A stretch of DNA of 32,000 bases, from contig NC_020409.1 in assembly GCF_000341895.1 (NCBI RefSeq), forward strand, positions 1,710,001 to 1,742,000, in the 5' to 3' direction. Origin of the DNA: Pseudodesulfovibrio piezophilus C1TLV30 (lineage in GTDB: Bacteria > Desulfobacterota > Desulfovibrionia > Desulfovibrionales > Desulfovibrionaceae). Position 1 is the first letter of the stretch. Every line of letters begins with the position of its first letter. Of this stretch, positions 13,980 through 32,000 are shown in pieces. The position numbers were made by a program, and so were the translations under genes. The notes below the pieces were generated by a model, which was not told the origin of the DNA, did not search any database, and worked only from the letters and a program-made list of their open reading frames with translations.

Positions 13980-16900
13980 TTATTCTTCCGGCGGCATGAT
14001 CTGTTCTATAATAGGATCGAGTAATTCCGTATTATCCGCAGCTCCGAGATCCCCATCGTTTGTGACGGGTTCTTCGAGAAGCGAATTATCCAGACTGTCG
14101 GCAATCATGTCCTGCCCGTTCAGAGTATGATCCAAAGCCTGGGCTAATGTTGCATCCGACCCATCATTCGTCTGGGTACCAAGACCGAGAATATCCGTAT
14201 ACAGTTGGGCCTCAGTGCTCAATCCGAGATCAACGGAAAGGACTTCCACACTGACATTCTCAGTCAAGGTGATGCTTGAACCATCCTGTTCTACAGTGGC
14301 TTCAACAGTCAAATCGAGCAACCCGGTAAACCCCTCGGGAGGATTCAGCGAAAGCCCCGGCACTTCGTCGGAAGAAAGCGTCCAAGATCCTCCCCCATTG
14401 TCTTGCCCTGCCGTCAAGCTGCCACCGTCAGGAACACCTGAAATCGTCACTGTAAGCAACTCGCCCGGTAAATCTGTCTGCGCATCTATGGAAAGAGCGA
14501 TAGGCTGGTCCTGATCGCCCAAAACATCGAGTACCGAAAATGTCGGCACATCAGGATCACCAATGACATCAACATTCAATGTCACTGTCGTGGAAGCCTC
14601 CGAAGAACCATCCAGAGCTGTTGCCGTGACTGTCAGGTCAAAATCTTCAGCGCTGTCAGGAGGCGGGGTCAAGGTCAATCCGTCAAGATCGGCCGCAAGC
14701 AGTGACCATGAACCATCGGGATTCTGTGTCCCGGCAGACAACGTCGCGTCTGTCGGCACACCTTCGATCGTTATTTCAAGAAGCTCTGAAGTATCCAAAA
14801 GGGATGTCTGAATATCCAAGGAGATGGCTGTATCCTCAAGCCCAACAGCCGGAAGAACAACAAGATTCGGCGTGTCCGCAACGGGCAGGATGGAGAGCGG
14901 CAGGTCAACCACAACCTCGGCTTCGGCCGCACCATCAAGGGCCGTGGCTGTCACTGTCAGGGTGTAATCCCCACTCTGATCCTCGGCCGGGAAGAGACGA
15001 AGGCCATCAAGATCGGCCGCAAGCAGCGACCACGAACCATCAGGATTCTGTGTCCCGGCAGACAACGTCGCGTCTGTCGGCACACCTTCGATCGTCACTT
15101 CAAGCACTTCAGAGGTGTCGAGCAACGCAGCCTGAATATCCAAGGAGATGGCTGTATCCTCAAGACCCACTGCCGGAGCGACAATCAGATTCGGCGTGTC
15201 CGCAACGGGCAGAATGGAGAGCGGCAGGTCAACCACAACCTCGGCTTCTGCCGCACCATCAAGGGCCGTGGCTGTCACTGTCAGGGTGTAATCCCCACTC
15301 TGATCCTCAGCCGGGAAGAGACGAAGGCCATCAAGATCGGCCGCAAGCAGCGACCACGAACCATCGGGATTCTGTGTCCCGGCAGACAACGTCGCGTCTG
15401 TCGGCACACCTTCGATCGTCACTTCAAGCACTTCAGAGGTGTCGAGCAACGCAGCCTGAATATCCAAGGAGATGGCTGTATCCTCAAGACCCACTGCCGG
15501 AGCGACAATCAGATTCGGCGTGTCCGCAACGGGTGTAATGGAAAGCGATAAATCAGAAATGGTTTCTGCTTGAGAGGCTCCATCCTGAGATGTTGCCGTC
15601 ACAGTAATTGTATAATCTCCACTCTGGTTATCAGCCGGAGTCAAGGTCAATCCAGGAAGATCTTCCGGTGCCAGAGTCCACGATCCATCCGGATTATTTA
15701 TCCCGGCGGAAAGGGATGCTCCTTCCGGCAACTGAGAGAGAGTCACACTCAGAACTTCCGAGATGTCAGTCAAGGAAGCCTCGATATCCAACGGGATAGT
15801 CGTATCTTCATCACCGGTCGCAGCGTCCACAATTAACGTTGGCGCATCGGCCACGGGCGTAATACTCACATCAAAAGTTGCCGAAGTTTGAGCAGTCTCA
15901 CCCGTCTCAGGTTCCGTGCTTGTGGCTGTGACGCTCAGCGTATAGTCACCACTCTGATTTTGGTCGGGAAGAAGTGTCAATCCAGGCAGGTCCGAGGCGG
16001 AAAGAGTCCACGATCCATCACTATTCTTCGTCCCGGCAGAGAGCGTTGCTCCTGCCGGAAGATCGGAAACCGACACTTCAAGTATTTCACCAGCATCACT
16101 CACGCTGGCCTGAAGGTCGAGCGGGATGGCCGTGTCTTCATCGCCCACCACGGATTGTGGGGAGAGATTCGGATTATCAGCCACAGGAATCACCTCGACT
16201 GAGAAATCAGTTCCTGTCGAAACAGAGTCGCCATCAGCTTCCGTTACGACTATTTCAGCATGGATATCGATACTTCCCGAGAAATCCAGAGGAGGTGTGA
16301 TGGTCAAATCAGGAAGATCTTCCCCCTGCACAAGCCACGATCCATCACCCTGAACCACTCCGGCAGAGAGAGATGCCCCTGCGGGAATACCCGTCAAGAC
16401 AGCAGTAACCGTCTCAGAACCATCCGTATCGATAGAAGAATAGCTGAGTTCAATAGGAATGGCCGTGTCTTCATCGCCACTCGTACCGATGGAATCGACC
16501 GGAACGTCATCAGCCTCGCCCTCCACACTAACCGTCACCGCCTGAGTGGAAACAGCAACCTCACCAGTGGACTCCTCAAGAGTATACACCGAAAGGGTCA
16601 ATTCGAAATCCCCGCTCGCATTGGGGGGAGGTGTAAAGGTCAACCCGTCAAGTTGTCCGGGAGTAAAAGTCCATGATCCGTCTCCATTGTTGATACCAGC
16701 AGAAAAAAGACTGTCAGTCGGGACACCTGAAAGCGTTAACGACGTTGTCTCCGACCCATCGGTATCCACAAGATCAACATCAATATTCAATGGAATGGCA
16801 GTATCTTCGAGACCGGATGCATCCGTCACCGAGATACTTGCCGGATCAGCCACGGCCTGTATGCTGACACCGAGATCACTGGAAAATGAGGATTGCGTTC

Positions 16901-19900: not shown

Positions 19901-22166
19901 AGCTGTCTTCGTTGCCTTCGGCATCAATGGTGGTCACTGTTGGCGTGTCGGCAACTCCGGTGATACTCACAGGAAGCATCGCCACACTCTGCGCGGTACT
20001 TCCGTTGGGTTCACGAGCTGTCGATGTCACGGTCAAGGTGAAGTCAACATTGCTGTCCGCAGGCGGTGAAAGGATCAAGCCTTCCAGATCCGCAGGAGCC
20101 AAAGACCACGAGCCATCTCCATTGTCTGTTCCTGCTGAAAGCGTCGCGCCTGCGGGAAGTCCTGACACAACAACATCGGTAATACTCTCGGTTCCGCTCG
20201 TATCAGTGACACTGGTTTCAATCGTCAACGCCATGCTCGTATCTTCACTGGATACGGCAGGAATCACGGTCAGAGCAGGGGTGTCAGCCACGGCATTCAC
20301 GGTCACAGGAACCACAGCGGTCACGACGGCGGTCTCTCCCCCCACGCTCTCCGTACTGGTCGCTTCCACCGTAATATCGAAATTTCCCTTGTAATCACGA
20401 GGCATGGTCATGGTCAGCCCGGAAAGCTGCGGTGACGTAAGCGTCCATGAGCCATCGCCGTTATCGGTCCCTGCGCTCAGAGATATCCCGTCAGGAATCC
20501 CGGAGAGGTTGAGGGAAAGCGTTTCCGAACCGTCCGTATCCACAAGACTGGAAGCTATATCGAGTTGAACAGGAACATCTTCGCTGCCCACAGCCGCACT
20601 GGTGCTCAATGTCGGCGCATCAACCACAGCCGCGACATCCACCCGTAATGGAGCCGAAGTCGTAGCCGTATCACCATTGGCATCAGTACTGGTGGCCGCG
20701 ACTGTCAAATTAAGTGAACCGGAAAAGTGCTCCGGCGGCGTGATCGTCAGGTCGGTGAGTTCTTCGGCGGTCAGGGTCCAGGTGCCGTCGCCGTTGTCCG
20801 TGCCTGAGGAGAGTGTCGAGCCGTCCGGGATGTTGCTCACCACCACGCTGATGGTTTCCGAGCCGTCCGTGTCGGTCAGGGCTGCCGAAATATCAAGGGC
20901 AATGCTGCCGTCTTCGCTGCCAGTGGCATCGGACACGGTCACGTCCGGGGCATCTGCCACCGGCGTGAAGGAGCCGCTCACCGAGCTGGTGCTCGAGGCC
21001 GTGCTGCCGTCGGATTCCGTGGTAATGGCCGTGACGGTCAGATCCACGTCACCCGAGAAATCCGCCGGGGGAACCAGTTCCAGCCCGGACGCCTCGTCCG
21101 AAGTCAGGGTCCAGGTGCCGTCGCCGTTGTCCGTCCCCGCTGTCAGGCTGAACCCGTCGGGAATGTCCGAAACAACATAGGTCAGCGTCTCCGAGCCATC
21201 CGTATCCGTCAGGCTACCGGAAATATCAAACGGCATATTCTGGTCTTCCGTCGCCTCGCCAAGGCTCGCCGTGAAGTCCGCTTCATCGGCCACACCGATG
21301 ACATCGACCGGCAAGTCTTGTTCAACTGACGCCGTGGAGCCATCACTCCCCGTACTGGTCGCTGTCACGCTCAATGTGAAGTCTACATTTGAATCAGGAG
21401 GAGGACTCAAGGTCAGTCCGTCAAGGTCCTCGGCTGTCAACTCCCAAACACCATCACCAAGATCTGTTCCTGCTGAAAGAACCGCTCCTTCCGGCAGACC
21501 GGAAATCAGAATGGAAAGCGTCTCCCCGCCCTGGTCTGTGTCCTGAAGAGTCGCTTCAATAATCAAGGGGACCGTGCCATCCTCATTGACCTGAGCCAAT
21601 TCCACGTTGAGAGCCGGAGCCTGGGCAGTGGTAATGATCGGATCTTCACCCTCGGTCACAATGACATCCGCAGGGGGAGCCTCCGGAGCGCTCTCTTCGG
21701 TCTCTCCATCTGGTGCAGCCAAACTCACGTCAGGATCAGTACCTTCATTCCTGAGCACTGATGATGAGGAAGATGGCGCGGCCTGTGTGGCTCCGCCCGG
21801 TGCCGCTTGAGCTTCGGGAGGAGCTGCCGCATCTCCTGGTTGAACTGCATCGGCTTCAGGAGCAGGGGCTGCCTGGCTTTCAGGAGTTTCCACTCTGTTC
21901 ACGGCAATGGGATCAGTCCCTGGAGCCGTATCAGCGGCAGCGCCTTCCCCCTCGGAGAGAAGCGACTCGTCATCCTTGCGACTGCCAAAAGGTTGTTCGT
22001 CGTCACCGGTCAACAACCCTTGTTGAGGGAATTCTTCGGCCCTGAGCTTTTCGGCATCTTCCGAGGCCTGGCGCGCCCCTTCAGCTGCCTGCTCATCCTG
22101 TTGTTCTCGCAGGCTTTCTTCGTCACCATCCGGAATGGGGATATCGTTGACGTTATCATCGGCCAT
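13980..22166 (-). CDS. Giant (2728 aa) acidic repeat protein, putative T1SS-exported surface adhesin
   Basis: A single uninterrupted ORF. Its ATG at 22166 sits 15 nt after the HlyD stop and has an ACGAGG SD. There is no signal peptide, and I found no Cys by eye. It holds about 22 tandem units of 100-110 aa sharing (G/L)EDTxIxLxI...TDTDGSE...SG(I/V)PxGAxLSAGTxNGDGSW...PPxD(F/Y)SGxF. No GGxGxD RTX nonapeptides are present. Confidence 0.9.
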   Translation of the reverse strand: MADDNVNDIPIPDGDEESLREQQDEQAAEGARQASEDAEKLRAEEFPQQGLLTGDDEQPFGSRKDDESLLSEGEGAAADTAPGTDPIAVNRVETPESQAAPAPEADAVQPGDAAAPPEAQAAPGGATQAAPSSSSSVLRNEGTDPDVSLAAPDGETEESAPEAPPADVIVTEGEDPIITTAQAPALNVELAQVNEDGTVPLIIEATLQDTDQGGETLSILISGLPEGAVLSAGTDLGDGVWELTAEDLDGLTLSPPPDSNVDFTLSVTATSTGSDGSTASVEQDLPVDVIGVADEADFTASLGEATEDQNMPFDISGSLTDTDGSETLTYVVSDIPDGFSLTAGTDNGDGTWTLTSDEASGLELVPPADFSGDVDLTVTAITTESDGSTASSTSSVSGSFTPVADAPDVTVSDATGSEDGSIALDISAALTDTDGSETISVVVSNIPDGSTLSSGTDNGDGTWTLTAEELTDLTITPPEHFSGSLNLTVAATSTDANGDTATTSAPLRVDVAAVVDAPTLSTSAAVGSEDVPVQLDIASSLVDTDGSETLSLNLSGIPDGISLSAGTDNGDGSWTLTSPQLSGLTMTMPRDYKGNFDITVEATSTESVGGETAVVTAVVPVTVNAVADTPALTVIPAVSSEDTSMALTIETSVTDTSGTESITDVVVSGLPAGATLSAGTDNGDGSWSLAPADLEGLILSPPADSNVDFTLTVTSTAREPNGSTAQSVAMLPVSITGVADTPTVTTIDAEGNEDSWIQVQAGGALTDTDSSESLSFSITDLPTGASLNVGTQNPDGSWDVSSEDIGNLYVRPPSNYSGTFDITVTSLATENDGDIATASEPVSVTVNAVADAARSRARDVSGDEDNDVPLDLSASVRDDSEVIESVVITGVPEGFSIVGGTDLGGDWSVPAESLDSLSIRAPQDYSGTVNLGFDVTTLEPENGSTRTTSRSFDVTFEAVADAPIITANNVTTLEDTPVQLDLLAQLTDTDLSETLEVTVSGVPAGASLSSGTDNGDGSWTIDPADLGTVTLTPPQHFSGEIALEFTATSTESSNNDTVSRTAGFTVGVTGVADIPEITVVDVQGTEDTEIALTVRAELEDADGSESLYVEFSGVPEGATFSAGTMLDNGNWLIPSGDLDSLTMTPPPDSNVDFTLTARSLAIEADGDRVYSVPQDINVSLQGDPDVPIVTMEGARGDEDTSISLNFTAESTDTDGSETISYVVSNIPAGASLSAGTFIGNGRWAVSAEDMPTLSVTPPSDYSGTFDLSVTVVVQEDDGRQSQEEYSVPVTVDPVVDQTDRGSVGGSASYGTAGGLEDTAIALNVDPGLTDADGSETVLWVDVSGLPVGATLSAGTEDPDNPGVFRILPSEFAGLTVTPPENSDVDFDLTVQATIQESGGATVVSEGQLHVEVHAVADAPLLETTSLLGLVNLGAEASLTDTDGSESLSFILSGFLGLNVAPSAGINLGNGSYLLTEDQLDGLSLSSDTLALGTTLLATLHAVSTEAENGDTAVTSESVLLQVSASIDLGGDLLGGGLPDPGTIIDGSIIGTPMTLEVNQPTGSEDSPFAVDISADFGTGGSQYGVIISNLPEGARPNTGYYDPVNDQWVISGDDPSLLENLEITPPADFAGALDFTVSIAKTGEDGLTQQTSTVVTATLDPVVDSPQISLGNPEGTEDTPFLLDLNVNVTDGSEQITSVVISNLPSGATILGATDLGDGRFEVGPDQLDQVQFSPPENAHGDFSFTVDAVVEESDGTQSSFSSDLGVSIQAVADPASISVTDASGLEDTAIPLNIDVDLVDTDGSETTSLTLSGVPTDSLFSAGINNGDGSWTFTPGQLDGLTFTPPPNASGDFELTLSVYTLEESTGEVAVSTQAVTVSVEGEADDVPVDSIGTSGDEDTAIPIELSYSSIDTDGSETVTAVLTGIPAGASLSAGVVQGDGSWLVQGEDLPDLTITPPLDFSGSIDIHAEIVVTEADGDSVSTGTDFSVEVIPVADNPNLSPQSVVGDEDTAIPLDLQASVSDAGEILEVSVSDLPAGATLSAGTKNSDGSWTLSASDLPGLTLLPDQNQSGDYTLSVTATSTEPETGETAQTSATFDVSITPVADAPTLIVDAATGDEDTTIPLDIEASLTDISEVLSVTLSQLPEGASLSAGINNPDGSWTLAPEDLPGLTLTPADNQSGDYTITVTATSQDGASQAETISDLSLSITPVADTPNLIVAPAVGLEDTAISLDIQAALLDTSEVLEVTIEGVPTDATLSAGTQNPDGSWSLLAADLDGLRLFPAEDQSGDYTLTVTATALDGAAEAEVVVDLPLSILPVADTPNLIVAPAVGLEDTAISLDIQAALLDTSEVLEVTIEGVPTDATLSAGTQNPDGSWSLLAADLDGLRLFPAEDQSGDYTLTVTATALDGAAEAEVVVDLPLSILPVADTPNLVVLPAVGLEDTAISLDIQTSLLDTSELLEITIEGVPTDATLSAGTQNPDGSWSLLAADLDGLTLTPPPDSAEDFDLTVTATALDGSSEASTTVTLNVDVIGDPDVPTFSVLDVLGDQDQPIALSIDAQTDLPGELLTVTISGVPDGGSLTAGQDNGGGSWTLSSDEVPGLSLNPPEGFTGLLDLTVEATVEQDGSSITLTENVSVEVLSVDLGLSTEAQLYTDILGLGTQTNDGSDATLAQALDHTLNGQDMIADSLDNSLLEEPVTNDGDLGAADNTELLDPIIEQIMPPEE
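14240..21630. repeat. Coding tandem-repeat array of the giant protein (about 22 units of roughly 300-330 bp)
   Basis: I counted 22 occurrences of the SAGT/SSGT/TAGT ... GDGSW core in the translation. Boundaries are approximate. Confidence 0.8.
14547..15535. repeat. Three tandem 324 bp units, two of them nearly identical at DNA level
   Basis: The anchor cgtgtccgca recurs at 14871, 15195 and 15519, giving a 324 bp period. Units 14871..15194 and 15195..15518 differ at 4 positions by my manual alignment and encode identical 108 aa. Unit 14547..14870 is near-identical only in its 14700..14870 part. Confidence 0.9.
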
Positions 22167-22181
22167 GGCAAACCTCGTTTG

Positions 22182-23486
22182 TTATCTTTCCTGAAATCCC
22201 TTGCTGGCCATCGTAAAGACCGGCTTCAGCAAGTATTGGAAAACAGTTTTTTCTCCCGTAATAATATCAACCTCGGCGGTCATGCCGGGAAGCAACATAC
22301 TTTTCCCCGGTATGCTGCCAAGATATGATCGTACAGGCGTCACCTCTCCAACATAATACAATTCCCCGTTGGGACCCGTAAAAGTAGATGGACTGAGCTT
22401 GGTCAAAGTGCCTTCCAAAACGCCATATCTGGAGTAATCATAAGTATCGACCCTGATATTCACAGACTGCCCGGCATGAACAAAACCGATATCTCGCGGA
22501 GAAACTTGGACCTGGACAACAAGGTCCACATCCAGCGGAACAATCTCCGCAATGACCTCACTCGGATTGACCACTGCTCCCGGACTGGTAAACATCAACG
22601 ACTTGACGATGCCCTTTGTGGGAGAGGAAATGAGCAGACGATCAAGCGAGGTCTGACGTTCATTCAACCGCTGCCGATTCTCAGCAAGTTCGGACAACAT
22701 CTGTGCTCGTTTTGTCTGAGCTGCCGTGAAAAGGTTTTGGCGAACCCGCTCCTGATTCTCACGAACCTCACGAATCTCCTTGCGAAGAACCTGCCGCATC
22801 CCTCGCAACTCAGCCATTTCCTTTTGAAATTCAGATTCACGCTGCTGAGCCCCGAGCAATTCAACCCGTGAAGCAACACCTTTCTCCTTGAGTTTTCTGT
22901 ACATTTCGGAAATCTCAGAGGAGGCCTTGAGCTGCCTTTCAAGAACCGGGAGTTTCTTCCTGACCGCATTCAGGGATTGTTGTTTCTGTTCATACTGTTC
23001 ATGCCAGGCTCGCACTTCCGCCCTGAGTTCGGCTCGTTGGGCAATAAGAATCTCCATCTGCTGCTCAACAAAAAGCGGATAATTCTCTATCCACTGCGAG
23101 AAATCAGGATCGCGCTCATTGACAAAAGCTTTGAGACGTTCTGCTTCCAACTCCAGAAACACCATCCGGGACTGGAGCTGATTGACATCAGTCTCGGTTT
23201 GCAATGGTTCAAAACGGATAAGAGGTTCCCCTTTTTCAACGGACTGCCCTTCCTTGATAAGGATATCAACTATCTGACCACCCTCCAGACTCTGTACCAG
23301 TGAAATCTTCCCGTGGGGTTCCACTTGTCCACGGGTTCTGGCGACCTCCGGAATCTTGGCCACAAAAGACCAGGCCAAAAGCGACAGGATAAGGAGGGCC
23401 ACCAACCATGCGACACCACGCACCGGAGAGGGGCGACGATGCGGCATGATAGCTCGTTCTCGAAACATACTCTTGTGCTTGCTCAT
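22182..23486 (-). CDS. HlyD-family type I secretion periplasmic adaptor (membrane fusion protein)
   Basis: The 434 aa product has an N-terminal TM (VAWLVALLILSLLAWSFV) and a lipoyl-like motif (GGQIVDILIKEGQSVEKGEPL). A long coiled-coil region and a C-terminal beta domain follow. Its start overlaps the ABC stop (TAATG). Confidence 0.9.
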   Translation of the reverse strand: MSKHKSMFRERAIMPHRRPSPVRGVAWLVALLILSLLAWSFVAKIPEVARTRGQVEPHGKISLVQSLEGGQIVDILIKEGQSVEKGEPLIRFEPLQTETDVNQLQSRMVFLELEAERLKAFVNERDPDFSQWIENYPLFVEQQMEILIAQRAELRAEVRAWHEQYEQKQQSLNAVRKKLPVLERQLKASSEISEMYRKLKEKGVASRVELLGAQQRESEFQKEMAELRGMRQVLRKEIREVRENQERVRQNLFTAAQTKRAQMLSELAENRQRLNERQTSLDRLLISSPTKGIVKSLMFTSPGAVVNPSEVIAEIVPLDVDLVVQVQVSPRDIGFVHAGQSVNIRVDTYDYSRYGVLEGTLTKLSPSTFTGPNGELYYVGEVTPVRSYLGSIPGKSMLLPGMTAEVDIITGEKTVFQYLLKPVFTMASKGFQER

Positions 23487-25609
23487 TAGTTGGACTCCTG
23501 CGAAGTAGTGATAGTGGCGGATGTGGTCTTGGGAGCGGGTGGCGGTGTCGGTTTGCCAAAGCTGATCGGCATCCCCTGGTCCAGAAGCAGGACCTTGTCA
23601 CACCGAGCCAAGACATCTCGATCGTGGGAGGAAATCAGGACAGTCTTCTCACCTCGGAACTCATCGAGCAGCTTGTAAAAATTTTCCTGGTATCTGGGAT
23701 TATGGAAAATGGGTTCATCCAAAAGCAATATTCTGGGATTCTTGAGAAGTGCCCTGGCAATGCAAATTGCCTGCTGCATATCGTGTCCCACCCGGATACC
23801 GCGATCCAGATACATGAAGGAGTCAAGCCCTTCCGGAAGGGTATTGACAAGTGATCCTGCTCCCGCTTTCTCCAGAGCGTGCAAGAGTTCCTCTTCCGTG
23901 GCGTCAGACTTGGCTATGAGAAGATTACTCCGCAACGTTCCTCGGAACGGGATATCGTTTTCAGGCAAAAACCCGAGCCAGGAGCGGACATCTTCGGGAT
24001 GGAACTGCCGAAGGTCTCGCCCGCCGATCAGGACACTGCCACCCTGTGGCTGAATAAGACCAGCAACGGTTTGCAGGAGAGTGGTCTTTCCCGCTCCATT
24101 GGGACCGGTCACACCAATGACCTCTCCCTCCTCTATCTGGATTGAAACACCGGCAAGAGCGGGTTCGCCATTTGAGGTATGCCGGAACACAACCCGGTTG
24201 AGAGCAACTGTCGGCGGAAGATCCTGCAATGGAGAAACCAGAGACGCATCAAGATTCTCTCCCTGAAGTTCCATGAGCCTATCCATCTGCCGGGCGGAAT
24301 GCCGGAGTTGGAAATAACGGCTGAACGCAGTCCCCAGAGTCTGGGTCGGACCGGTGATCCGCCAGATGAACATCATTGACCCGATCATCGCTCCAGGCGT
24401 GATGGAACCCTCAAGAACCAACCACATTGCCACGGCCAGTGTCGCCAGCGCCGTACCCGATGACATAATCCTGGAAAGGATGCGGAAGCTCGCGGAAATC
24501 AGGGCGTAATTTCTGTTTGCAACTGCGGACCGAGCCATTACCCTGGAATAATTATCAATCCACCGCTCTTCCAGACCAACACCAATCAGACCTCTTAATT
24601 TATCAATGGTATCCTGCTGAATAGCGCTCCTTTCACTGTTGAGCTTGGCTGCCTTTCGCATAGCCCTGTCTTCAAGCATACTCAGAAAGGGGATCGTCAT
24701 GCAGTAGAGGATCAATGCTGTCAGAGGCACCAGAGCCAGGCGTCCGCCCATGACCCCCACGGCACCGAGATACAAAAGGATAAAAGGTGCATCCAGTAGC
24801 GTTGTGGCAAAGTTTCCCGAAACAAATTCCCGAACCCGTTCCAGGTCACGGAGACGCAAAAGGTGCGCATCCGTACTGCTTTTTGTCAGAATAGTTGTTG
24901 GTAGACTGAGAATCTTCCCGAAGGATTCTACCCCTGAGAGATAGGCCAGGCGTCCTCCGGCGTATGTCAGCAAACGGGACCGGACCAGCCGAAAAACCAT
25001 GCCGAAGATTACGGCTATCGACACACCACCGCCAAGGTAAAGCAAACCGGTTGAAGAATGGGCCGGGATGGCTCTGTCATAGACATAGCGCGTGAAGAAC
25101 GGGAGTGCCAATCCAACAACATTAATGAAGAAACTCGCGATGACAGCCCCGGAAACCTGACTCCAGAGACCGGAGACTGTCCAGGAAAGCCAGGAACCTT
25201 GAGCGGCTCCTGAAGCCAGATCGACTTTGGGAAAAACCAGGATGACAACGCCAGAACGAGGCGGATCGCTTTCCGGGGTCAAAACGGTCACAGTCTCCCC
25301 GGTCACATGGATGGCTGGAGTACTCAAGTCACCTATTTCCTTTGCGGAAAGGACTTCAGTATCATACCCGAGCCTGGCAAGAATATCCCGAAGGTCTTCA
25401 AAGCCGAGTGGCGTCCCTAGCGGCAAGGCGGACAAGAACTCCTTGGCCGATCCGTGCCAGCAGATCGAAGCAAGAACGCTGACCAGTGCATCAAGATAAG
25501 GCGAAGGTGGCAGATTTGCATTTTCCAGGGCAAAGAAAAAGTTTCCCTGACAGGATATTTCATCTTCGCAAAACTCCAGAGGGTGCATTTGATGGAAGCG
25601 TAAACTCAT
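23486..25609 (-). CDS. T1SS permease/ATPase with an LssB-type N-terminal C39-like domain. Walker A, Walker B and H-loop are intact; the signature motif is degenerate.
   Basis: The start is set at MSLRFHQMHPLEF (ATG 25609), which forms an ATGA overlap with the upstream ABC stop. The N-terminal domain reads SPYLDALVSVLASICWHGSAKEFLSALPLG...PAIHV. The TMD carries YVYDRAIP. Walker A is GPNGAGKTT, Walker B ILLLDEP and H-loop SSHD. The position of LSGGQ reads VGHDM, and the Q-loop reads PEND. Confidence 0.9.
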   Translation of the reverse strand: MSLRFHQMHPLEFCEDEISCQGNFFFALENANLPPSPYLDALVSVLASICWHGSAKEFLSALPLGTPLGFEDLRDILARLGYDTEVLSAKEIGDLSTPAIHVTGETVTVLTPESDPPRSGVVILVFPKVDLASGAAQGSWLSWTVSGLWSQVSGAVIASFFINVVGLALPFFTRYVYDRAIPAHSSTGLLYLGGGVSIAVIFGMVFRLVRSRLLTYAGGRLAYLSGVESFGKILSLPTTILTKSSTDAHLLRLRDLERVREFVSGNFATTLLDAPFILLYLGAVGVMGGRLALVPLTALILYCMTIPFLSMLEDRAMRKAAKLNSERSAIQQDTIDKLRGLIGVGLEERWIDNYSRVMARSAVANRNYALISASFRILSRIMSSGTALATLAVAMWLVLEGSITPGAMIGSMMFIWRITGPTQTLGTAFSRYFQLRHSARQMDRLMELQGENLDASLVSPLQDLPPTVALNRVVFRHTSNGEPALAGVSIQIEEGEVIGVTGPNGAGKTTLLQTVAGLIQPQGGSVLIGGRDLRQFHPEDVRSWLGFLPENDIPFRGTLRSNLLIAKSDATEEELLHALEKAGAGSLVNTLPEGLDSFMYLDRGIRVGHDMQQAICIARALLKNPRILLLDEPIFHNPRYQENFYKLLDEFRGEKTVLISSHDRDVLARCDKVLLLDQGMPISFGKPTPPPAPKTTSATITTSQESN

Positions 25610-27240
25610 GCCACCACCTCCATTGCTTCTGATTTGACGGTAACCGTACAATGTTCATCAAGCTTCAGTGAGTGTTCGAACACTGTTCGTAAGGTTGAAT
25701 CTGTCGGAAGCAGAAGGATTGTCGGCCCTTCCACCTTTTGGAGCATCTGGGCAAGCAACTGTTTTCCTGCAAGGTCTATCCCTTCATCTGCTTCATTGAG
25801 GAAAAGCAGGACTGGGTCCTGAGTCAAAGCCCGAACTATTGCCATGCGTTGGATGGTCCCCATTTCGAGCGGTCCACCCACGACATCACCGACCTGGGTT
25901 CGAAAGCCGTTAGGCATGGAATGGATAAATTTTGTCAATCCGACCTGATGAGAAAGCTCAATGGCCTTCAACTCCCTGGAAGGCTGATACAACGTCAGAT
26001 TGTCCATAATGGAGCCTCGGAACACCTGACTTCGGCGCGTCACGAATGCCACGGCGCGGCGATAGGTATTTCGGGCATAATTGGGCAGAGGATAATTGCC
26101 GACCAACACCTGTCCCTTGTCAGGCTGACGGCTCCCGATAAGCAAGCCCATGAACATCGGAAGGCTCGCCCCCATGGAATTACTCAACATGAACTTGCTC
26201 CCAGAAGGAATATCCATGTTGAATGTATACAGATTATCCCCCCGAGAAACCTGTGCATCCTTCATGACTATGGAACCGTCTTCAGGGGCCAATTCGGAAT
26301 CAACAGAAAAGGTATGATCTTCTTCGAGTTCCCAGAATTCATCCACGCGGTCCCGTGCCACCCAAATTCGTTGCAGATGTGGCCAAAGCCCCATCAGAGC
26401 GACGACCGGGCTAAGACTCCGCCCTGCGAGGATAGTACAGGCAGCAAGCCCGCCTGTGGTCAATTGGCCGTCCATAACGAATAAGGCTCCCACTACCACG
26501 GTCGCGATGGTGGTCAGTCCGCCAAGGAGCGAAATACAATCGGAAATAGTATGTCCTAGCCTGTCGAGCCGAGTGCGTTCCACAATCAGGCTCTGTGATT
26601 TATGACGGAAAATACGCAGCATCAATCGCTCACCTCCCAGGCATTTGATGGAGGAAAGCGTATTGAGAATATTAGTTATGAAATTCATCCTGTCGTCATC
26701 GGTCTCACTTGTCTTCCGTGACGCCGTTCGCAGGCTTCTTCCCGCTATCATTGTCGAGAGAATGGCCACCACATAGATTGTCAGTGGAACAAAAACAAGG
26801 TTCCCTCCGATATACCATATCGCCCCGAGGAAAAGCAGAGTAAAAGGCAAGTCGAACATGACCAGAAGGGTCTGCCCGGAATAGTGTTCACGCATACTCG
26901 CAATATCGGCAAGTCGCTGTTTGAGTGCCCCACTTCCCATATTCAACGCCTGGGCCAGATCGCACTCAAAGAGCTTGCGCATGGCCAGCAGCGCTGATGA
27001 ATACTCAAAAAATTCCCCGTAAAGGGAGAGTATATATGTTCGCATGAACCGGAATATTCCTTCGATAACCAGTGCCACAATGGCCCCGAGAAAGAGCAAT
27101 GCGGCCGTACTGAGGGCGGAATTTGGCAGAATGCGATCATAGACCTGAAGCAGGACGATCGGGACCGCCAGACTCAAAAGGTTTATCAGGAAACTGAGGA
27201 TGGTGATATCAAGACGTATTCCAAAAGTGAGTGTTTTCAT
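25606..27240 (-). CDS. T1SS-type ABC permease (no N-terminal accessory domain) with a degenerate, probably non-catalytic nucleotide-binding domain
   Basis: The TMD has the T1SS hallmark LLQVYDRILP. Aligned by eye to the neighbour, the NBD motifs are all altered:
- Walker A is SNSMGASLP (Lys replaced by Leu)
- Q-loop Gln is replaced by Arg (VTRRSQVF)
- the signature is LEMGT
- Walker B is LLFLNE (Asp replaced by Asn)
- the H-loop is LLPTDS (no His). Confidence 0.85.
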   Translation of the reverse strand: MKTLTFGIRLDITILSFLINLLSLAVPIVLLQVYDRILPNSALSTAALLFLGAIVALVIEGIFRFMRTYILSLYGEFFEYSSALLAMRKLFECDLAQALNMGSGALKQRLADIASMREHYSGQTLLVMFDLPFTLLFLGAIWYIGGNLVFVPLTIYVVAILSTMIAGRSLRTASRKTSETDDDRMNFITNILNTLSSIKCLGGERLMLRIFRHKSQSLIVERTRLDRLGHTISDCISLLGGLTTIATVVVGALFVMDGQLTTGGLAACTILAGRSLSPVVALMGLWPHLQRIWVARDRVDEFWELEEDHTFSVDSELAPEDGSIVMKDAQVSRGDNLYTFNMDIPSGSKFMLSNSMGASLPMFMGLLIGSRQPDKGQVLVGNYPLPNYARNTYRRAVAFVTRRSQVFRGSIMDNLTLYQPSRELKAIELSHQVGLTKFIHSMPNGFRTQVGDVVGGPLEMGTIQRMAIVRALTQDPVLLFLNEADEGIDLAGKQLLAQMLQKVEGPTILLLPTDSTLRTVFEHSLKLDEHCTVTVKSEAMEVVA

Positions 27241-27346: not shown

Positions 27347-27394
27347 AAAAACCGCATTGTTCGTGACGTTACATGTCACAAACAATACGGTTTT
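27347..27394 (-). terminator. Strong intrinsic terminator after the two-component/HD-GYP operon
   Basis: A 20 bp stem (27348..27367 pairing with 27375..27394) with a 7 nt loop. Its two imperfections are G.U pairs in the minus-strand RNA but C.A mismatches in + strand RNA. A UUUUU run follows on the minus strand. The hairpin starts 28 nt after the stop at 27423. Confidence 0.7.
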
Positions 27395-27422: not shown

Positions 27423-28529
27423 TCAGGCCATGGAATCCCCTTCGAAGCAATAAAGGCCATGGCATTCCTCATCCAAAAAGGTGTCCTTGATATGCATTAT
27501 TTTATCTAAAATTCTCATAAACGCGTCCGAGACATCTGGGTCGAAATTGGTTCCACGCATCCCTGCCATGATTTCCAATGTTTTATCCACCGAGAATGCC
27601 TCCTTATAGGGTCTGGGAGACAGCAGTGCATCAAAGACATCGGCAATGGAGACAATCCGTGCTGCAAGAGGAATCTTCCGGCCCGCCAGCCCTCGGGGGT
27701 AGCCTTTCCCATCCCACCGTTCATGGTGGTTAAGGGCGATAACCTCTCCGAGCCTCAAAATACCGGAAGGATCACCCTCAAGAATACGGGCACCGATAGT
27801 GGTGTGTCTTTTCATGATTTCCCATTCGTCCGGGTCCAGTTTGCCCGGCTTGAGCAGGATTCTATCAGGAATACCGATCTTGCCGATATCATGCAGTGGC
27901 GCGGCATACAGGATATGCTCGGCAACCGTATCGGAAAGGCCCATCTCGAGCGCGATAGCCGCAGAGTAATGACTCATGCGCTGAATATGCGCCCCTGTAT
28001 CCTCATCCTTGAATTCAGCTGTCCTGGAGAGACGAAAGATCGTCTGGAGTGAAGAGGAACGAAGCTTTTCGAGAGCCTTGGAAAGCTGTGCTGTCTTGCG
28101 TTCGACCTCTCGCTCAAGCTCTTGATGATAATGTATCAACTGTTCTGAATAATCCTTCAACTTGACGAGAGTCCTGACTCGTGCCAGCAGTTCAGTCCTG
28201 TCCACCGGTTTTGTCAGAAAATCATCGGCTCCGGACTCCAGGGCCTGCACTCTGTCGGACACATCATCCAGGCTGGTGACCATGACCACGGGAATGATAC
28301 CGGTTTGAGGGTTTTCCTTGATCTGCTTTGTCGCAACAAACCCGCTGATCCCCGGCATCATGACATCCATGAGAATGACAGCCGGGGAATATTTCACAGA
28401 GAACTCGACCCCTTCGTACCCATCCTTGGCAAGTTTCACGGAATACCCTTCAGGTATAAGCAATGCCTCCAGAAGTCGGCGGTTGCGGTCCTCATCATCG
28501 ACAACCAGGATAAGTGGCCCGTCAGACAT
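27423..28529 (-). CDS. Response regulator with an HD-GYP output domain (RpfG-type c-di-GMP phosphodiesterase)
   Basis: The receiver reads LILVVDDE...MDVMMPGISG...TKP. The HD-GYP motifs are LHDIGKIGIP and HHERWDGKGYPRGL. The start overlaps the upstream stop by 8 nt (ATGTCTGA) and follows a GGAGA SD. Confidence 0.9.
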   Translation of the reverse strand: MSDGPLILVVDDEDRNRRLLEALLIPEGYSVKLAKDGYEGVEFSVKYSPAVILMDVMMPGISGFVATKQIKENPQTGIIPVVMVTSLDDVSDRVQALESGADDFLTKPVDRTELLARVRTLVKLKDYSEQLIHYHQELEREVERKTAQLSKALEKLRSSSLQTIFRLSRTAEFKDEDTGAHIQRMSHYSAAIALEMGLSDTVAEHILYAAPLHDIGKIGIPDRILLKPGKLDPDEWEIMKRHTTIGARILEGDPSGILRLGEVIALNHHERWDGKGYPRGLAGRKIPLAARIVSIADVFDALLSPRPYKEAFSVDKTLEIMAGMRGTNFDPDVSDAFMRILDKIMHIKDTFLDEECHGLYCFEGDSMA

Positions 28530-29982
28530 TTTTCATCTCCTCTCTCCCCTCACCTGTGGGGCGACATGTTCCTGACAAAGGAACTGCCATATGAAAGCCG
28601 AAACTTGCATCAGCCTCATTTTTTTCGCACCAAACCCGTCCATCATGAAGTTCTGCATATTTTTTGGCCAAAACCGGGCCAATTCCCAATCCGGGACCGG
28701 CCCCGTAATGAATTCCCGAAAAAGGTTCGGTAATATCCGAACACGCCAAATGGCTCACATCCGTCTTCGAAAGGGTCACGGTCAGAGACAGCCAATCCCG
28801 ACTATCTTGTTCCGCCAAAAATTCAGCCGGAGGCAGGGAGGACTCCAAATTCACATGAAGATGAGCACCCTCCGAGGCCATACGAATGGAAGTATCGATC
28901 AAATACAATATGGATTGGTGAATCTTGTTTTGATCAAGTGCCATCATCGGTAATCTTTCAAGATCGGAACTCAAGATAATCCCACATTGTAACGCGCGCT
29001 CCTTGACCAGGGAAAGAACCCGACTCACGATCTCATCAGGCAGCACCGGGCGGCAATCTAGTGATAACCGCCCTGCTTCCACTCGGGCCAGCGCAAGAAT
29101 CTCATTGACCATTTCATTGAGAAGCTGTGCGCTCTGTTCGATATCCTTGACATACCCTCGCTGTTTTTCATTCAGCTCCCCGTAGTATCTGTCCGTCAGT
29201 ATTTGTGAAAAACCCAATATCGAATTGAGCGGTGTCCTGAACTCGTGACTGACACTGGCTAGGAACAGGGCTTTGACCTGAATGGCGGACTCCGCTTCTT
29301 CCTGTGCGGCTTTCAGCTCTTTATTAGCGTCGGCCAGCACCTGAACATGGCGGTGTTCACGATAAAAAACACCATTCCAGATGCCGAGCAAAAATAAAAT
29401 CCCCCCCCCCAACAGGGCATTCCTCTGGATATGATGACCCGAATTCTCATCACCGTCATGTACCCGTGAAAGGTGATTTTGTGACATTTCAACAGCGAGC
29501 TTAAACCGCTCCCTGAGACTCTTGTACTCATCGGAAACAAGAAATGACGCAAAAGCAGACCCCACAGAAGAACCATTCAAGAGAGAAACTTCCAACTCCT
29601 CAAGCTGTCTGAAGGATGTGACGACATCATGCAAAATCCCCTGTTCCGCCACGGGAATTTTCTCGATCTGAGCCAAAACATTCACCATGCTCGCTTGCAA
29701 CCGGGCTATGGAAGGGGACTGCTCTCCCTCTTTCATTTCTCCCGAATTCACTATGGCCGTATGGAGTTTTTCTTCGAAATATCGAAGATCGCTCATCACC
29801 AGTAAAGCCCTAATCTCTGCATCAAGATGCTCATCATATCGTCGTTCCATATCAACGATAAAAAAAATTCCCAGAAAGACGATGGAGATGGACAGAATCA
29901 ACCGTCCCCACAAGGTGACGAAAAGAGGGGCCTCAAAACCGAAAAAAAGACCTCGTGAGGAAATTCTTTGCAGAATACCCAT
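28522..29982 (-). CDS. Membrane histidine-kinase-like protein with an intact DHp H-box and a degenerate catalytic ATP-binding domain
   Basis: Two TM segments (RLILSISIVFLGIFFIV and LLGGGILFLLGIWNGVF) flank a region of about 150 aa. The H-box is ASVSHEFRTPLNSILGF. Aligned to the neighbouring kinase, the N-box FNLLSNA becomes LYLIDTS (both Asn lost). G1 DTGIGI becomes LSKTDV. G2 (GPGLGIG) is retained. Confidence 0.8.
   Translation of the reverse strand: MGILQRISSRGLFFGFEAPLFVTLWGRLILSISIVFLGIFFIVDMERRYDEHLDAEIRALLVMSDLRYFEEKLHTAIVNSGEMKEGEQSPSIARLQASMVNVLAQIEKIPVAEQGILHDVVTSFRQLEELEVSLLNGSSVGSAFASFLVSDEYKSLRERFKLAVEMSQNHLSRVHDGDENSGHHIQRNALLGGGILFLLGIWNGVFYREHRHVQVLADANKELKAAQEEAESAIQVKALFLASVSHEFRTPLNSILGFSQILTDRYYGELNEKQRGYVKDIEQSAQLLNEMVNEILALARVEAGRLSLDCRPVLPDEIVSRVLSLVKERALQCGIILSSDLERLPMMALDQNKIHQSILYLIDTSIRMASEGAHLHVNLESSLPPAEFLAEQDSRDWLSLTVTLSKTDVSHLACSDITEPFSGIHYGAGPGLGIGPVLAKKYAELHDGRVWCEKNEADASFGFHMAVPLSGTCRPTGEGREEMKNV
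29401..29410. repeat. Homopolymer: C10 on +, G10 on the coding strand, inside the kinase-like gene
   Basis: Read directly: ...aaaataaaat cccccccccc aacaggg... It encodes the GGG of LLGGGILF in the second TM segment. It is the longest homopolymer I found in the window. Confidence 0.95.
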
Positions 29983-30353
29983 CAGGCTGCCCCGAGATAT
30001 TCATGCAGAAGCGCAACCAATCGACGCGTATCTATCGGTTTTGTCATCAGATCATTACAGCCGGAAGCACGAATCTCGCTTTCCTCAGTCGGAAGAGAAT
30101 ACGCCGTGAGAACAATTATGGGGATGGAATTGTTGGAGGGCAATGCTCGTATTCGCTTGATAGCTTCCAACCCATCCATCACCGGCATCTGAATGTCCAT
30201 GAAAATAAGATCAGGATGCTGTTCTTCGGCCATGATGACCCCGTCCAGCCCGTTCATTGCCTCCAGGGCCTGGTAACCCAACGCTTCCACAAGGTCTCTT
30301 ACCAACTTCAGGCTACGGGGATCATCCTCAACAACAAGAACTTTTTTCGACAT
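29982..30353 (-). CDS. Single-domain CheY-like response regulator
   Basis: The 123 aa product reads KVLVVEDD...LIFMDIQMPVMDG...TAY...TKP. An AGGAG SD overlaps the upstream stop. Its own stop overlaps the next start (TGATG). Confidence 0.9.
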   Translation of the reverse strand: MSKKVLVVEDDPRSLKLVRDLVEALGYQALEAMNGLDGVIMAEEQHPDLIFMDIQMPVMDGLEAIKRIRALPSNNSIPIIVLTAYSLPTEESEIRASGCNDLMTKPIDTRRLVALLHEYLGAA

Positions 30354-30358
30354 GAGTG

Positions 30359-32000
30359 CTACTCCTGATTTTCCGGTCGAGGATTCGTGGATTGCTGACC
30401 GGGAAACACGAAAACAAACCGACTGCCCTGATCTTCACCTGAACTCTCAGCCCATATGGTGCCGCCCTGTAATCGCAAAAGCTGGGCAGAAAGGGGAAGT
30501 CCCAGACCTGTCCCCGGAGTTTTATCGATTTTGCCCGATTTGACCTGATAAAAGGAATCAAAAATCTTGAAAAGTTGCGATTCGTCAATCCCGATACCCG
30601 TATCCGTGATCGAGACGAGAAGCCAATCAGATTGATCTGAAGCCAATTCTCCCCAAAGTGTCTCTGGGACCTTCTCCCGTACCGAACCAAAATCAAGCCG
30701 ACTTGCAGCAAGAGTTATTTGTCCGCCATCCGGTGTAAACTTGGAGGCATTGGAAAGGAGATTGAACAAAACCTGCTTGATCTTCCGTTCATCAGCACTC
30801 ACCATCCCTATATCTTCTGGAAAATCCGTCACCAACTCTATATTGTGTTTTTTTGCCTTTTCCCTGATATAAATGAGACTTGTGCTCAAAAGCATATCCA
30901 GATCAAATTGGGAAAGCTGGATTTCCATTTTGCCTGCTTCAATCTTGGAGAGATCAAGAACATCATTGATCAGTGCCAGAAGGTGCTGCCCGCTTTGCAG
31001 GATATCGACGATATATTCGTCCTGTTTCTCTGTCAGCGGTCCAAAGTATTTATCCTGAAGTACTTCTGCAAAACCGATAACCGCGTTGAGTGGAGTCCGT
31101 AATTCATGACTCATGCTCGCCAGAAAATTCGACTTTGCCTGACTGGCCGCTTCCGCGATTTCCTGGGCAGTCTGAGCCTCATTACGTGCGTCGATGAGGC
31201 TTTGCTCAGACCGTTTGCGCTCTGTAATATCCGAAATAAAACAACACATGAAATGAGTCTCTTCAGCGATCAGAAAATAGGTTACCAATTCGACGGCAAG
31301 CCGGGTTCCATCACTGCGCCGCAGCATCGTTTCAAAACTCACTCCTTCGAGTTTGCGTGCCCGTTCGAAAACTTCTGTCAAATGTTCCGAATCAAGATCA
31401 GGAAGAATTTCGTTGATGGAAAGGGTCAACAATGCATCCTTCTCCCTCCCTATCTGCCTGACCGCACCATCATTGACATCGAAAATGGAACCATCCGGCC
31501 GTACCCAATAAATCCCCTCTCGAGATCGATCCACAGAAAGGCGGGTTCGCCGTAAGGCTTCATCCATTTGCTTTCTTTTAGAAATATCCTCTATCACTGA
31601 AATGAAATGGATTGGTTCACCATCTATGTCTCTCATGAGCGAGACTGTGAGATTGACCCAAACCAGACCTCCGTCCTTGGTCCAGTACCGTTTTTCCATT
31701 CGGTAGTTCTGAATCTCGCCGGAAATCACTTTGCCGACCAACTCCAGATCCGTTGCCAGGTCATCGGGATGAGTGATGTCCTGAAAGGTCTTGTGGATCA
31801 ATTCACTCCTCGGGTATCCGACAATCTCACAAAGCTTGTCATTAATTCGAATCCAGGAACCATCCAATCCCACGTGGGCAAGCCCGACTGCCGCCTGATC
31901 AAAAGTGGCCCGAAAGCGCGCCTGGCTGATCTGAGCAGCCTTTTCAGCCTTCCGTATTTCGGTCAAATCCCTCAGTGTCGCAGTGAAAAAGCGCTCTCTG
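30359..32000 (-). CDS. Cytoplasmic multi-PAS sensor histidine kinase. Partial: the N-terminus lies beyond the right edge.
   Basis: The frame stays open to the window edge. Upstream of the track start (a TTG) it reads ...RERFFTATLRDLTEIRKAEKA, the end of another PAS domain. Two further PAS ends read EDISKRKQ and SDITERKRSE. The H-box is ASMSHELRTPLNAVIGF, with a complete N-box (NLLSNASKF), G1 (DTGIGI) and G2 (GTGLGL). Confidence 0.85.
   Translation of the reverse strand, partial: RERFFTATLRDLTEIRKAEKAAQISQARFRATFDQAAVGLAHVGLDGSWIRINDKLCEIVGYPRSELIHKTFQDITHPDDLATDLELVGKVISGEIQNYRMEKRYWTKDGGLVWVNLTVSLMRDIDGEPIHFISVIEDISKRKQMDEALRRTRLSVDRSREGIYWVRPDGSIFDVNDGAVRQIGREKDALLTLSINEILPDLDSEHLTEVFERARKLEGVSFETMLRRSDGTRLAVELVTYFLIAEETHFMCCFISDITERKRSEQSLIDARNEAQTAQEIAEAASQAKSNFLASMSHELRTPLNAVIGFAEVLQDKYFGPLTEKQDEYIVDILQSGQHLLALINDVLDLSKIEAGKMEIQLSQFDLDMLLSTSLIYIREKAKKHNIELVTDFPEDIGMVSADERKIKQVLFNLLSNASKFTPDGGQITLAASRLDFGSVREKVPETLWGELASDQSDWLLVSITDTGIGIDESQLFKIFDSFYQVKSGKIDKTPGTGLGLPLSAQLLRLQGGTIWAESSGEDQGSRFVFVFPGQQSTNPRPENQE

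Follow-up and report, generated by a model that had tools for sequence, protein, structure and literature searches.

What can a histidine kinase still contribute to a signalling pathway once its ATP site has decayed, and how does such a protein come to stand between a single-domain receiver and an enzyme that hydrolyses cyclic di-GMP (c-di-GMP)? These questions are raised by a four-gene operon of the deep-sea sulfate reducer Pseudodesulfovibrio piezophilus C1TLV30 (NCBI RefSeq assembly GCF_000341895.1, contig NC_020409.1). It lies at the end of the window that we analysed, which is the whole stretch of 32,000 nucleotides (nt) from position 1,710,001 to 1,742,000 of the forward strand; coordinates are counted from the first base of this window unless another contig is named. 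An initial annotation had seen in the operon the layout of a His-Asp-His-Asp phosphorelay ending in an HD-GYP phosphodiesterase. We find that this anatomy is real and that, to judge from the sequence, the assignment of the third gene product as kinase-dead is solid; the operon is a rare variant on a scheme that other bacteria are known to use and for which there are experimental precedents. Positions 27,423-32,000 of the minus strand hold four co-directional genes in the order HK1, REC2, HK3 and REC-HD-GYP, followed by a hairpin (aa, amino acids):

30359..>32000, minus strand: 3' part of HK1 (C-terminal 547 codons), frame open to base 32000
29982..30353, minus strand: REC2, a stand-alone receiver of 123 aa (Pfam Response_reg)
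28522..29982, minus strand: HK3, a membrane-anchored kinase-like protein of 486 aa (Pfam HisKA plus weak HATPase_c)
27423..28529, minus strand: REC-HD-GYP response regulator of the RpfG family, 368 aa (Pfam Response_reg plus HD_5/HD)
27348..27394, minus strand: hairpin of 20 bp and then a U run, 29 nt past the HD-GYP stop codon (RNA folding)

The four open reading frames (ORFs) are real genes and not chance occurrences, because their domain E-values lie between 1e-20 and 1e-36 and the same gene order is found on independent contigs. Their junctions are, in order, a 5 nt gap (HK1/REC2), a 1 nt overlap (REC2/HK3) and an 8 nt overlap (HK3/REC-HD-GYP), the same values that had first been reported for the locus; the stand-alone receiver and the receiver-HD-GYP protein recognised at that time are likewise recovered by Pfam. 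HK3 is translationally coupled and placed between the single-domain receiver and the REC-HD-GYP protein. The hairpin at 27348..27394 folds with -30.2 kcal/mol (z = -6.2, with 0 of 200 shuffles equally stable) and is likely to be an intrinsic terminator that closes the four-gene unit. Upstream, on the source contig, the bound is a 23-bp hairpin that follows a flavodiiron-protein gene (-40.5 kcal/mol, z = -10.8). HK1, REC2, HK3 and REC-HD-GYP form a single transcription unit between these two strong hairpins, both of which came from direct folding; a scan for consensus promoters and terminators gave the same counts as shuffled sequence and was uninformative.

The upstream kinase had been annotated as a complete PAS kinase, but in the window its frame is open to the last base and the gene extends beyond it; the TTG at 31966 that might pass for its start is an artefact of the ORF listing. 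The source contigs, which belong to JGI metagenomes 3300009847-9, were located through exact identity of the HK3 protein, and NCBI annotates this protein in P. piezophilus, one of the Desulfovibrionaceae. On the source contig (L001:6436-9624) the full gene encodes 1062 aa arranged as a transmembrane (TM) segment, a dCache-like sensor, a second TM segment, HAMP, three PAS domains, HisKA (84 bits in Pfam) and HATPase_c (81 bits). Its ATP-site boxes are intact (N-box NLLSNASKF, G1 DTGIGI, G2 GTGLGL), and by this measure HK1 is the sole ATP-competent kinase of the operon. Neither full-length HK1 nor HK3 has a Response_reg or Hpt match in Pfam, so that the HPt domain and the kinase-fused receiver of a classical multistep phosphorelay are missing from both. 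The functional motifs of HK1 and of the two receiver proteins are placed as follows:

31085..31117, minus strand: HK1 H-box SMSHELRTPLN (motif position)
30186..30206, minus strand: phospho-acceptor Asp of REC2, in IFMDIQM (motif position)
28356..28376, minus strand: phospho-acceptor Asp of REC-HD-GYP, in ILMDVMM (motif position)
27876..27902, minus strand: HD motif APLHDIGKI (motif position)
27684..27734, minus strand: motif HHERWDGKGYP (motif position)

REC2 scores 92 bits against Response_reg, and in a search of the sequences of solved structures (PDB) its top match is DivK (1m5t, 88 bits; the runner-up has 72.6 bits). The REC-HD-GYP protein scores 97.5 bits for Response_reg and 124 bits for HD_5; in the same PDB search its receiver finds PleD REC1 as top match and its HD-GYP domain the active enzyme PmGH (4mcw, 208 bits). 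All the features of the RpfG family are there, namely a receiver with its acceptor Asp and the HD, HHE and GYP motifs, and the protein is predicted to be an active c-di-GMP phosphodiesterase. RpfG-type REC-HD-GYP proteins are the commonest HD-GYP architecture, and Desulfovibrio members are active phosphodiesterases (bioRxiv 10.1101/2021.11.05.467447; PMC4114195).

The question then turns on HK3 itself, whose parts are:

29842..29931, minus strand: first TM segment (TM1), aa 18-47 (hydropathy)
29419..29841, minus strand: helical extracytoplasmic region (hydropathy, AlphaFold2 model)
29362..29418, minus strand: second TM segment (TM2), aa 189-207 (hydropathy)
29224..29256, minus strand: H-box SVSHEFRTPLN, with His246 at 29245..29247 (motif position)
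28876..28917, minus strand: degenerate N-box QSILYLIDTSIRMA (motif position)
28753..28779, minus strand: degenerate G1 box VTLSKTDVS (motif position)
28675..28692, minus strand: retained G2 box GLGIGP (motif position)

Pfam recognises the HisKA domain of HK3 (aa 237-304) at 72.2 bits against a cut-off of 26.9, and gives HATPase_c 22.9 bits, under the gathering cut-off of 26.4. HK3 and its two orthologues (P0002 and P0003) were aligned with the 47 nearest kinase cores and the diagnostic columns were read; residues are given here in the order HK3, P0002, P0003. The Mg-binding asparagine of the N-box, found in 47/47 relatives, is replaced by T, A and T; the first N-box asparagine (45/47) by Y, C and C; the N-box lysine (45/47) by R in all three; and the phenylalanine that follows this lysine in 45 of the 47 by M, I and H. 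The aspartate and the two glycines of G1, each present in every relative, read L-K-D in HK3 and V-D-N in P0002, and are the intact D-G-G in P0003. All three proteins retain canonical H (S-H-E-F/L-R-T-P-L-N) and G2 (GxGxG) boxes; the SHEFRTPLN of HK3 is the same as the consensus of the 47 relatives, and its dimerization and histidine phosphotransfer (DHp) domain is fully canonical (His246, Glu247, Thr250). Part of the F box is kept as well, along with G2 and the modelled fold of the catalytic and ATP-binding (CA) domain.

An AlphaFold2 model of HK3 (mean pLDDT 80.9, above 90 in the CA domain) gives the CA domain an ordinary alpha/beta fold, makes the extracytoplasmic region entirely helical and shows an unbroken helix that runs from TM2 into the DHp domain. 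Over DHp and CA together, HK1 and HK3 are 32% identical. On this evidence HK3 is almost certainly unable to bind ATP in the canonical manner while its phosphorylatable histidine is retained, and canonical binding appears to have been lost as the phospho-acceptor helix was maintained. The alignment thereby upholds the initial annotation, which had described a kept H-box with lost N-box asparagines and G1 and had proposed an HATPase_c alignment as a check (the sub-threshold score and the lost ATP-binding residues agree with it); the membrane anchor and the extracytoplasmic region of about 150 aa that it had drawn correspond to the two TM segments and a loop of about 141 aa between them. In a motif scan of the top matches of an exhaustive profile search, related cores nearly always had every box, and the loss of the ATP site is for this reason confined to a small HK3 family.

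It had been suggested that a DHp domain joined to a CA domain unable to bind ATP gives HK3 the architecture of the phosphotransferases Spo0B and ChpT. The architectural half of this comparison stands: the trait that defines the functional class formed by ChpT, Spo0B and PhyT, a DHp histidine together with a CA-like domain that cannot bind ATP, is found in HK3 as far as its sequence indicates. Membership of either family does not stand. HK3 has no match to the ChpT family PF10090 (HPTransfase) at E <= 0.1 and none to the Spo0B-type (SPOB) family in Pfam; neither ChpT nor Spo0B appears in its PDB sequence search (E <= 0.001), and the structural comparison with these two proteins that the initial annotation had called for placed neither among the top 50 Foldseek matches. 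Its best structural and sequence matches are GacS, RetS, HK853, DivL and ShkA, and its DHp and CA domains align to GacS, RetS and HK853 with target-normalised TM-scores of 0.65-0.82 (Foldseek). HK3 as a ChpT or Spo0B family member is excluded on both sequence and fold; it looks like a degenerate member of the ordinary HisKA/HATPase_c family. This lowers the claim that HK3 is a ChpT and leaves unlowered the claim that it works like one.

How old is this arrangement, and is it maintained? A word-indexed search of 5.8 billion proteins returned only two full-length homologues of HK3, P0002 (41% identity) and P0003 (33%), and an exhaustive HMMER search of 1.84 billion cluster representatives added zero further full-length members. 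P0002 occurs on two contigs (L004 and L005) in the same setting: genes for a kinase of 1065 aa, a receiver of 123 aa, P0002 itself and REC-HD-GYP are followed by those for two ABC proteins, a membrane fusion protein and a cadherin-like protein of 3226 aa. The contig that carries P0003 has 2.3 kb and places it between fragments of a DivK-like receiver and of a REC-HD-GYP protein. The order REC2, HK3, REC-HD-GYP, with overlapping or near-abutting junctions, is accordingly found in three lineages, and the position between a single-domain receiver and a terminal regulator to which the initial annotation had drawn attention is kept in each of the three orthologues known.

Between P. piezophilus and L004 the neighbours of HK3 are well conserved: 62% identity for the whole of HK1 (DHp 90%, CA 69%), 74% for REC2, 79% for REC-HD-GYP and 77% for the first ABC protein of the adjacent cluster. 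HK3 itself has 40% over its whole length, distributed as 24% in the sensor, 69% in the DHp domain and 44% in the CA domain. It is the fastest-evolving member of the cluster and yet, from this pattern, clearly under selection, the DHp domain most strongly. The N-box is lost in all three family members, and G1 is lost only in HK3 and P0002 and intact in P0003, the most distant of them. Because of this distribution, the ATP site can be read as having decayed stepwise once the use of ATP was abandoned, the N-box first and then G1.

The relatives that do not have HK3 indicate what the pathway was like before it. We used the REC-HD-GYP protein to scan one genome per species and annotated the flanks of 80 loci by phmmer. 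Its closest homologues (49-62% identity; L007, L008, L009, L010 and L012), and several more distant ones, stand in three-gene modules that consist of an orthodox kinase, a DivK-like single receiver and REC-HD-GYP, in that order. The kinases carry PAS/GAF domains and intact N, G1 and G2 boxes, with cores 42-51% identical to HK1, and the receivers are 33-44% identical to REC2. These modules have no HK3 and no second histidine kinase, and Pfam finds neither a receiver nor an HPt domain in their kinases; in none of the other loci among the 80 does a degenerate kinase stand between the receiver and the HD-GYP gene. Because the three-gene modules lack HK3, it can be viewed as a lineage-specific insertion into a module that worked without a second histidine step. 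By this comparison HK3 is a later add-on, and the ancestral pathway would have had no need of it.

Did the insertion rewire the older route? In the alpha-1 helix of the HD-GYP receiver, the element on which partner recognition chiefly depends, the four-gene operon has DDEDRNRRLLEALL where two of the three-gene modules (L007 and L010) have DDEDRNLRLMEALL, and the DHp alpha-1 helix of HK3 (TPLNSILGFSQIL) is close to that of the HK1-type kinases. Comparison of these helices gave no sign that the terminal receiver has been rewired from HK1, nor that HK1 and HK3 are insulated from each other. Since this receiver helix hardly differs between the two types of module, direct transfer from HK1 to REC-HD-GYP is likely to have been retained.

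Several candidates for related arrangements were considered and set aside. A metagenome-assembled contig (L011:298-2973, DAIPLW010000409.1) encodes an 892-aa protein with a multi-pass membrane region, a kinase core, a receiver and a second intact core (VHDLKNP), directly upstream of a REC-HD-GYP gene whose product is 53% identical to that of the window; it was rejected as a "Rosetta stone" fusion, its second core having intact N, G1 and G2 boxes and another type of H-box. The proteins of about 890 aa that are the top profile matches after the HK3 family are not HK1-REC2-HK3 fusions either. They belong to a sizeable family (P0121-P0164, about 870-900 aa) with two complete HisKA-HATPase_c cores in tandem and no receiver between them. 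In some of its members (for example P0147, P0151, P0154 and P0159) the motif scan finds no N, G1 or G2 box in the second core, and such tandem proteins may be another route to kinase-dead DHp modules. Three further candidates for degenerate kinases near REC-HD-GYP genes (L070, L044 and L075) were plain receiver or truncated ORFs.

How, then, might HK3 act? With some hesitation, and judging its chance to be rather short of even, we propose that HK3 exchanges phosphoryl groups independently of ATP and works as a gated shunt or drain beside a direct HK1 route that persists. The four-gene unit would set the phosphorylation state of the REC-HD-GYP c-di-GMP phosphodiesterase. HK1 alone would use ATP; it would phosphorylate REC2 and probably also REC-HD-GYP directly, as its relatives must do in the three-gene modules. 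HK3 would have originated from a kinase core that was fused to a new two-TM helical sensor and that seems to belong to the subfamily of HK1. Its His246 would take phosphate from REC2~P and exchange it with the receiver of the HD-GYP enzyme, and its extracytoplasmic domain would gate this exchange, adding a second input to a branched pathway without becoming an obligatory link in it. The output would be c-di-GMP hydrolysis, plausibly in connection with the type I secretion system and the giant adhesin that are encoded beside the operon. All of these phosphotransfer steps, and the link to adhesion, we infer from the comparisons given here.

We prefer the exchange account because the N-box and G1 residues that are conserved in 45-47 of the 47 relatives are lost while the H-box and G2 are kept; because the DHp domain (69%) and the CA fold (44%) have been maintained beside a sensor that is 24% identical; because the same gene order is found in three lineages and hairpins bound the operon; because the closest three-gene modules are without HK3 or HPt, the receiver alpha-1 helix is near-identical and the DHp alpha-1 helices of HK3 and HK1 are alike; and because transfer from a receiver to a kinase-like histidine has precedents in PhyT (PMC5898713) and RedE (PMC2755868). 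Several considerations weigh against it. The direct transfer from HK1 to REC-HD-GYP is itself deduced from relatives, and the L011 fusion protein that was sought as support carries two intact kinase cores. HK3 evolves far faster than its neighbours (40% identity as against 62-79%), which could reflect a weakly constrained accessory role, and a family of three members makes arguments from conservation thin. The retained H-E-x-x-T is, moreover, equally what a phosphatase-only HisKA protein requires (work on EnvZ and HK853), and the sequence appears to fit phosphotransfer, phosphatase and scaffold roles alike.

A phosphatase-only sensor of the PleC or EnvZ N347D type, in which the histidine of HK3 would never bear phosphate as a productive intermediate and its DHp domain would dephosphorylate REC2~P and/or REC-HD-GYP~P on an extracytoplasmic signal and so oppose HK1, agrees with the invariance of H-E-x-x-T in all three orthologues; the threonine at H+4 is the key phosphatase residue of HisKA proteins, and EnvZ N347D is kinase-negative and phosphatase-positive. 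The two receivers have DivK and PleD as their best matches, proteins that in Caulobacter are served by the kinase/phosphatase pair DivJ and PleC, and the ancestral module already had a complete route from kinase to receiver. We nonetheless hold this role to be unlikely. Bound nucleotide, which HK3 should not be able to bind, stimulates the phosphatase activity of several HisKA kinases. PhyT, moreover, was formerly held to be a phosphatase, and clear phosphotransfer but no phosphatase activity was detected (PMC5898713). A strict linear relay, from HK1 through REC2 only to His246 of HK3 and on to REC-HD-GYP with no relevant direct HK1 route, would make the gene order, with its translationally coupled junctions, the order of flow. 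The layout is conserved in three lineages, HK3 seems kinase-dead with its histidine kept, and in the PhyT system the receiver and PhyT relay dominates in vivo although the kinases phosphorylate the final regulator directly in vitro (PMC5898713). The closest modules work without HK3 or HPt, however, so that the direct route is ancestral; the recognition helix of REC-HD-GYP has not diverged from that of the three-gene modules, and the nearly identical DHp alpha-1 helices of HK1 and HK3 do not suggest insulation between the steps. We regard the strict relay as rather unlikely. The His-Asp-His-Asp relay of the initial annotation thus keeps its layout and its kinase-dead protein with a histidine, and loses exclusivity to the HK3-free relatives and the direct route that is likely to persist; it is plausible without being favoured over a shunt or a phosphatase. 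It is doubtful, if worth entertaining, that HK3 is an independently evolved, signal-gated, membrane-integral phosphotransferase of HisKA lineage whose recent insertion made of a branched pathway a gated His-Asp-His-Asp relay.

The remaining explanations do without catalysis by His246, or without the loss of kinase activity or function. As a non-catalytic pseudokinase resembling DivL or RetS, HK3 would bind REC2~P, or would heterodimerise with HK1 through the DHp domain, and in this way switch HK1 between its kinase and phosphatase states. The kinase regions of RetS and DivL are indeed among the best structural and sequence matches of HK3, REC2 is DivK-like, and the cores of HK1 and HK3, related as described above, have very similar DHp helices; but HK3 resembles RetS and DivL no more closely than it does ordinary kinases such as GacS and HK853, and the strict retention of the phosphorylatable histidine and of the whole H-box makes this explanation very unlikely. 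Less probable again are two opposite ideas, that HK3 has remained an active kinase with a nucleotide site of unusual kind, and that its gene is decaying and without function. In their favour, HK3 keeps G2, some of the F box and the CA fold, G1 is intact in P0003, and HK3 evolves faster than any other gene of the cluster. The Mg-binding asparagine and the adenine-binding aspartate, present in 47/47 relatives, are nevertheless absent, which speaks against residual kinase activity, and a decaying gene would hardly preserve an open frame of 486 codons or a DHp domain 69% identical across orthologues whose overall identity is 33-41%. The exchange account remains the one that we adopt.

What the output might serve is suggested by the genes downstream of the operon:

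25606..27240, minus strand: first type I secretion ABC protein, 544 aa (Pfam ABC_tran, 27.6 bits)
23486..25651, minus strand: second type I secretion ABC protein, 721 aa (Pfam ABC_tran, 86.8 bits)
22182..23486, minus strand: HlyD/AprE-type membrane fusion protein (Pfam)
13980..22166, minus strand: cadherin/Big_9 repeat protein, 2728 aa (Pfam)
11659..13797, minus strand: CHASE-PAS-PAS-GGDEF diguanylate cyclase (Pfam GGDEF 170 bits, CHASE 63 bits)

The secretion genes and a giant repeat gene follow the signalling genes in L004 and L005 too, the counterpart in L004 having 3226 aa. A giant secreted adhesin is the probable identity of the 2728-aa repeat protein. Its gene and the secretion genes stand between a gene for c-di-GMP synthesis on one side and the REC-HD-GYP hydrolase operon on the other; the GGDEF cyclase is a possible counterpart of the HD-GYP enzyme, and a functional link between the two is presumed. 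Neither a protease of LapG/DvhG type nor a receptor of LapD/DvhD type turned up in the scanned ORFs, and for the secretion system no TolC-like outer membrane component was recognised within the window. The type I secreted giant adhesins of Desulfovibrio vulgaris are under c-di-GMP control via DvhD and DvhG (PMC13090378), and by analogy with this control a role of the operon in adhesin-dependent attachment is plausible. The hairpin after the HD-GYP gene suggests that the secretion genes are transcribed separately.

The 544-aa ABC protein lacks a Walker A motif (SNSMGASLP where GxxGxGK[ST] is expected) and its 721-aa partner has GPNGAGKT. The pair has the look of a heterodimeric exporter in which one ATP site is degenerate; this would be the second loss of an ATP site in this gene cluster. 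Elsewhere in the window two ORFs on opposite strands overlap, one of 450 aa at 9224..10576 (minus strand) that matches no Pfam family at E <= 0.001 and one of 350 aa at 9203..10255 (plus strand). Immediately upstream of HK1 the source contig (L001:88-6110) carries a HAMP-PAS chemoreceptor gene and an oxidative-stress cluster composed of a Fur-family regulator, rubrerythrin, desulfoferrodoxin, rubredoxin and flavodiiron protein, with a very strong hairpin at its end.

The known dead kinases that keep a phospho-acceptor histidine (Spo0B, ChpT, PhyT and RedE) each came from genetics in a model organism. HK3 offers an independent case, built on a classical HisKA scaffold, in which related bacteria preserve the ancestral three-gene state and one family displays two stages in the decay of the ATP site, the N-box only and then the N-box with G1. 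The three- and four-gene modules are a natural before-and-after pair for the grafting of components onto two-component pathways; were the phosphotransferase reading true, they would be such a pair for the birth of a phosphorelay, and the operon would be the first split relay that feeds an HD-GYP phosphodiesterase. The system makes tractable the grafting of extra steps and inputs, the fate of a dead kinase as phosphotransferase, phosphatase or scaffold, and the way in which c-di-GMP turnover is coupled to a giant adhesin of type I secretion in sulfate reducers, for which control of such adhesins by c-di-GMP was recently described (PMC13090378). With three known members in the HK3 family, the system is of limited practical reach.

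It remains to place the operon among known systems. In the literature retrieved on P. piezophilus and histidine kinases together, titles and the opening lines of abstracts point to nothing on this operon. ChpT of Caulobacter and Spo0B of Bacillus share with HK3 a DHp-like four-helix-bundle dimer with a phosphorylatable histidine and a CA-like domain that does not bind ATP; they are soluble and without sensor domains, whereas HK3 seems to have a full-length canonical HisKA/HATPase_c core with a kept G2 box. DivL has a tyrosine at the phospho-acceptor position. HK3 is unlike such pseudokinases in that His246 is kept in all three orthologues. The DivJ/PleC-DivK-PleD system of Caulobacter resembles the operon in having one or two HisKA kinases, a DivK-type receiver and an adjacent receiver-coupled c-di-GMP enzyme, and differs in that its output PleD is a GGDEF cyclase and not an HD-GYP phosphodiesterase, and in that only the operon has all its genes together. 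PleC, furthermore, keeps an active ATP site. RpfC of Xanthomonas is a single hybrid polypeptide that carries both a receiver and an HPt domain. With RpfG it follows the multistep His-Asp-His-Asp design that ends in a REC-HD-GYP regulator (bioRxiv 10.1101/2021.11.05.467447); the present operon, in contrast, has no protein with an HPt domain.

Two membrane-anchored proteins also serve as precedents, RedE (PMC2755868) and PhyT (PMC5898713). The "four-component" RedCDEF system of Myxococcus xanthus also combines a true kinase with a kinase-like partner that fails to autophosphorylate and with two proteins that are receivers; RedE receives phosphate from RedD and removes it from RedF (PMC2755868). 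Here RedD is a dual receiver, the output RedF is a single-domain protein, the process controlled is development and no c-di-GMP enzyme is involved; the loss of autokinase activity was shown by experiment in RedE and is predicted in HK3. The initial annotation knew of no membrane-embedded, sensor-bearing analogue of Spo0B or ChpT; PhyT is such a precedent, and in this respect the novelty of HK3 had been overstated. Like HK3, PhyT sits between a single-domain receiver and a terminal response regulator, and in vitro it passes phosphate from SdrG, the receiver, to PhyR via a conserved histidine (PMC5898713); the upstream kinases of that system also reach the terminal regulator directly, a further likeness. 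The DHp domain of PhyT is of the HRxxN type (PMC5898713), which HK3, a classical HisKA protein with HEFRTP, does not have. PhyT is alphaproteobacterial and widespread, its components are scattered over the genome and its output is the anti-anti-sigma factor PhyR, whereas the three known members of the HK3 family come from Desulfovibrionaceae-like genomes, and the HK3 system has its components in one operon with an HD-GYP enzyme as its output.

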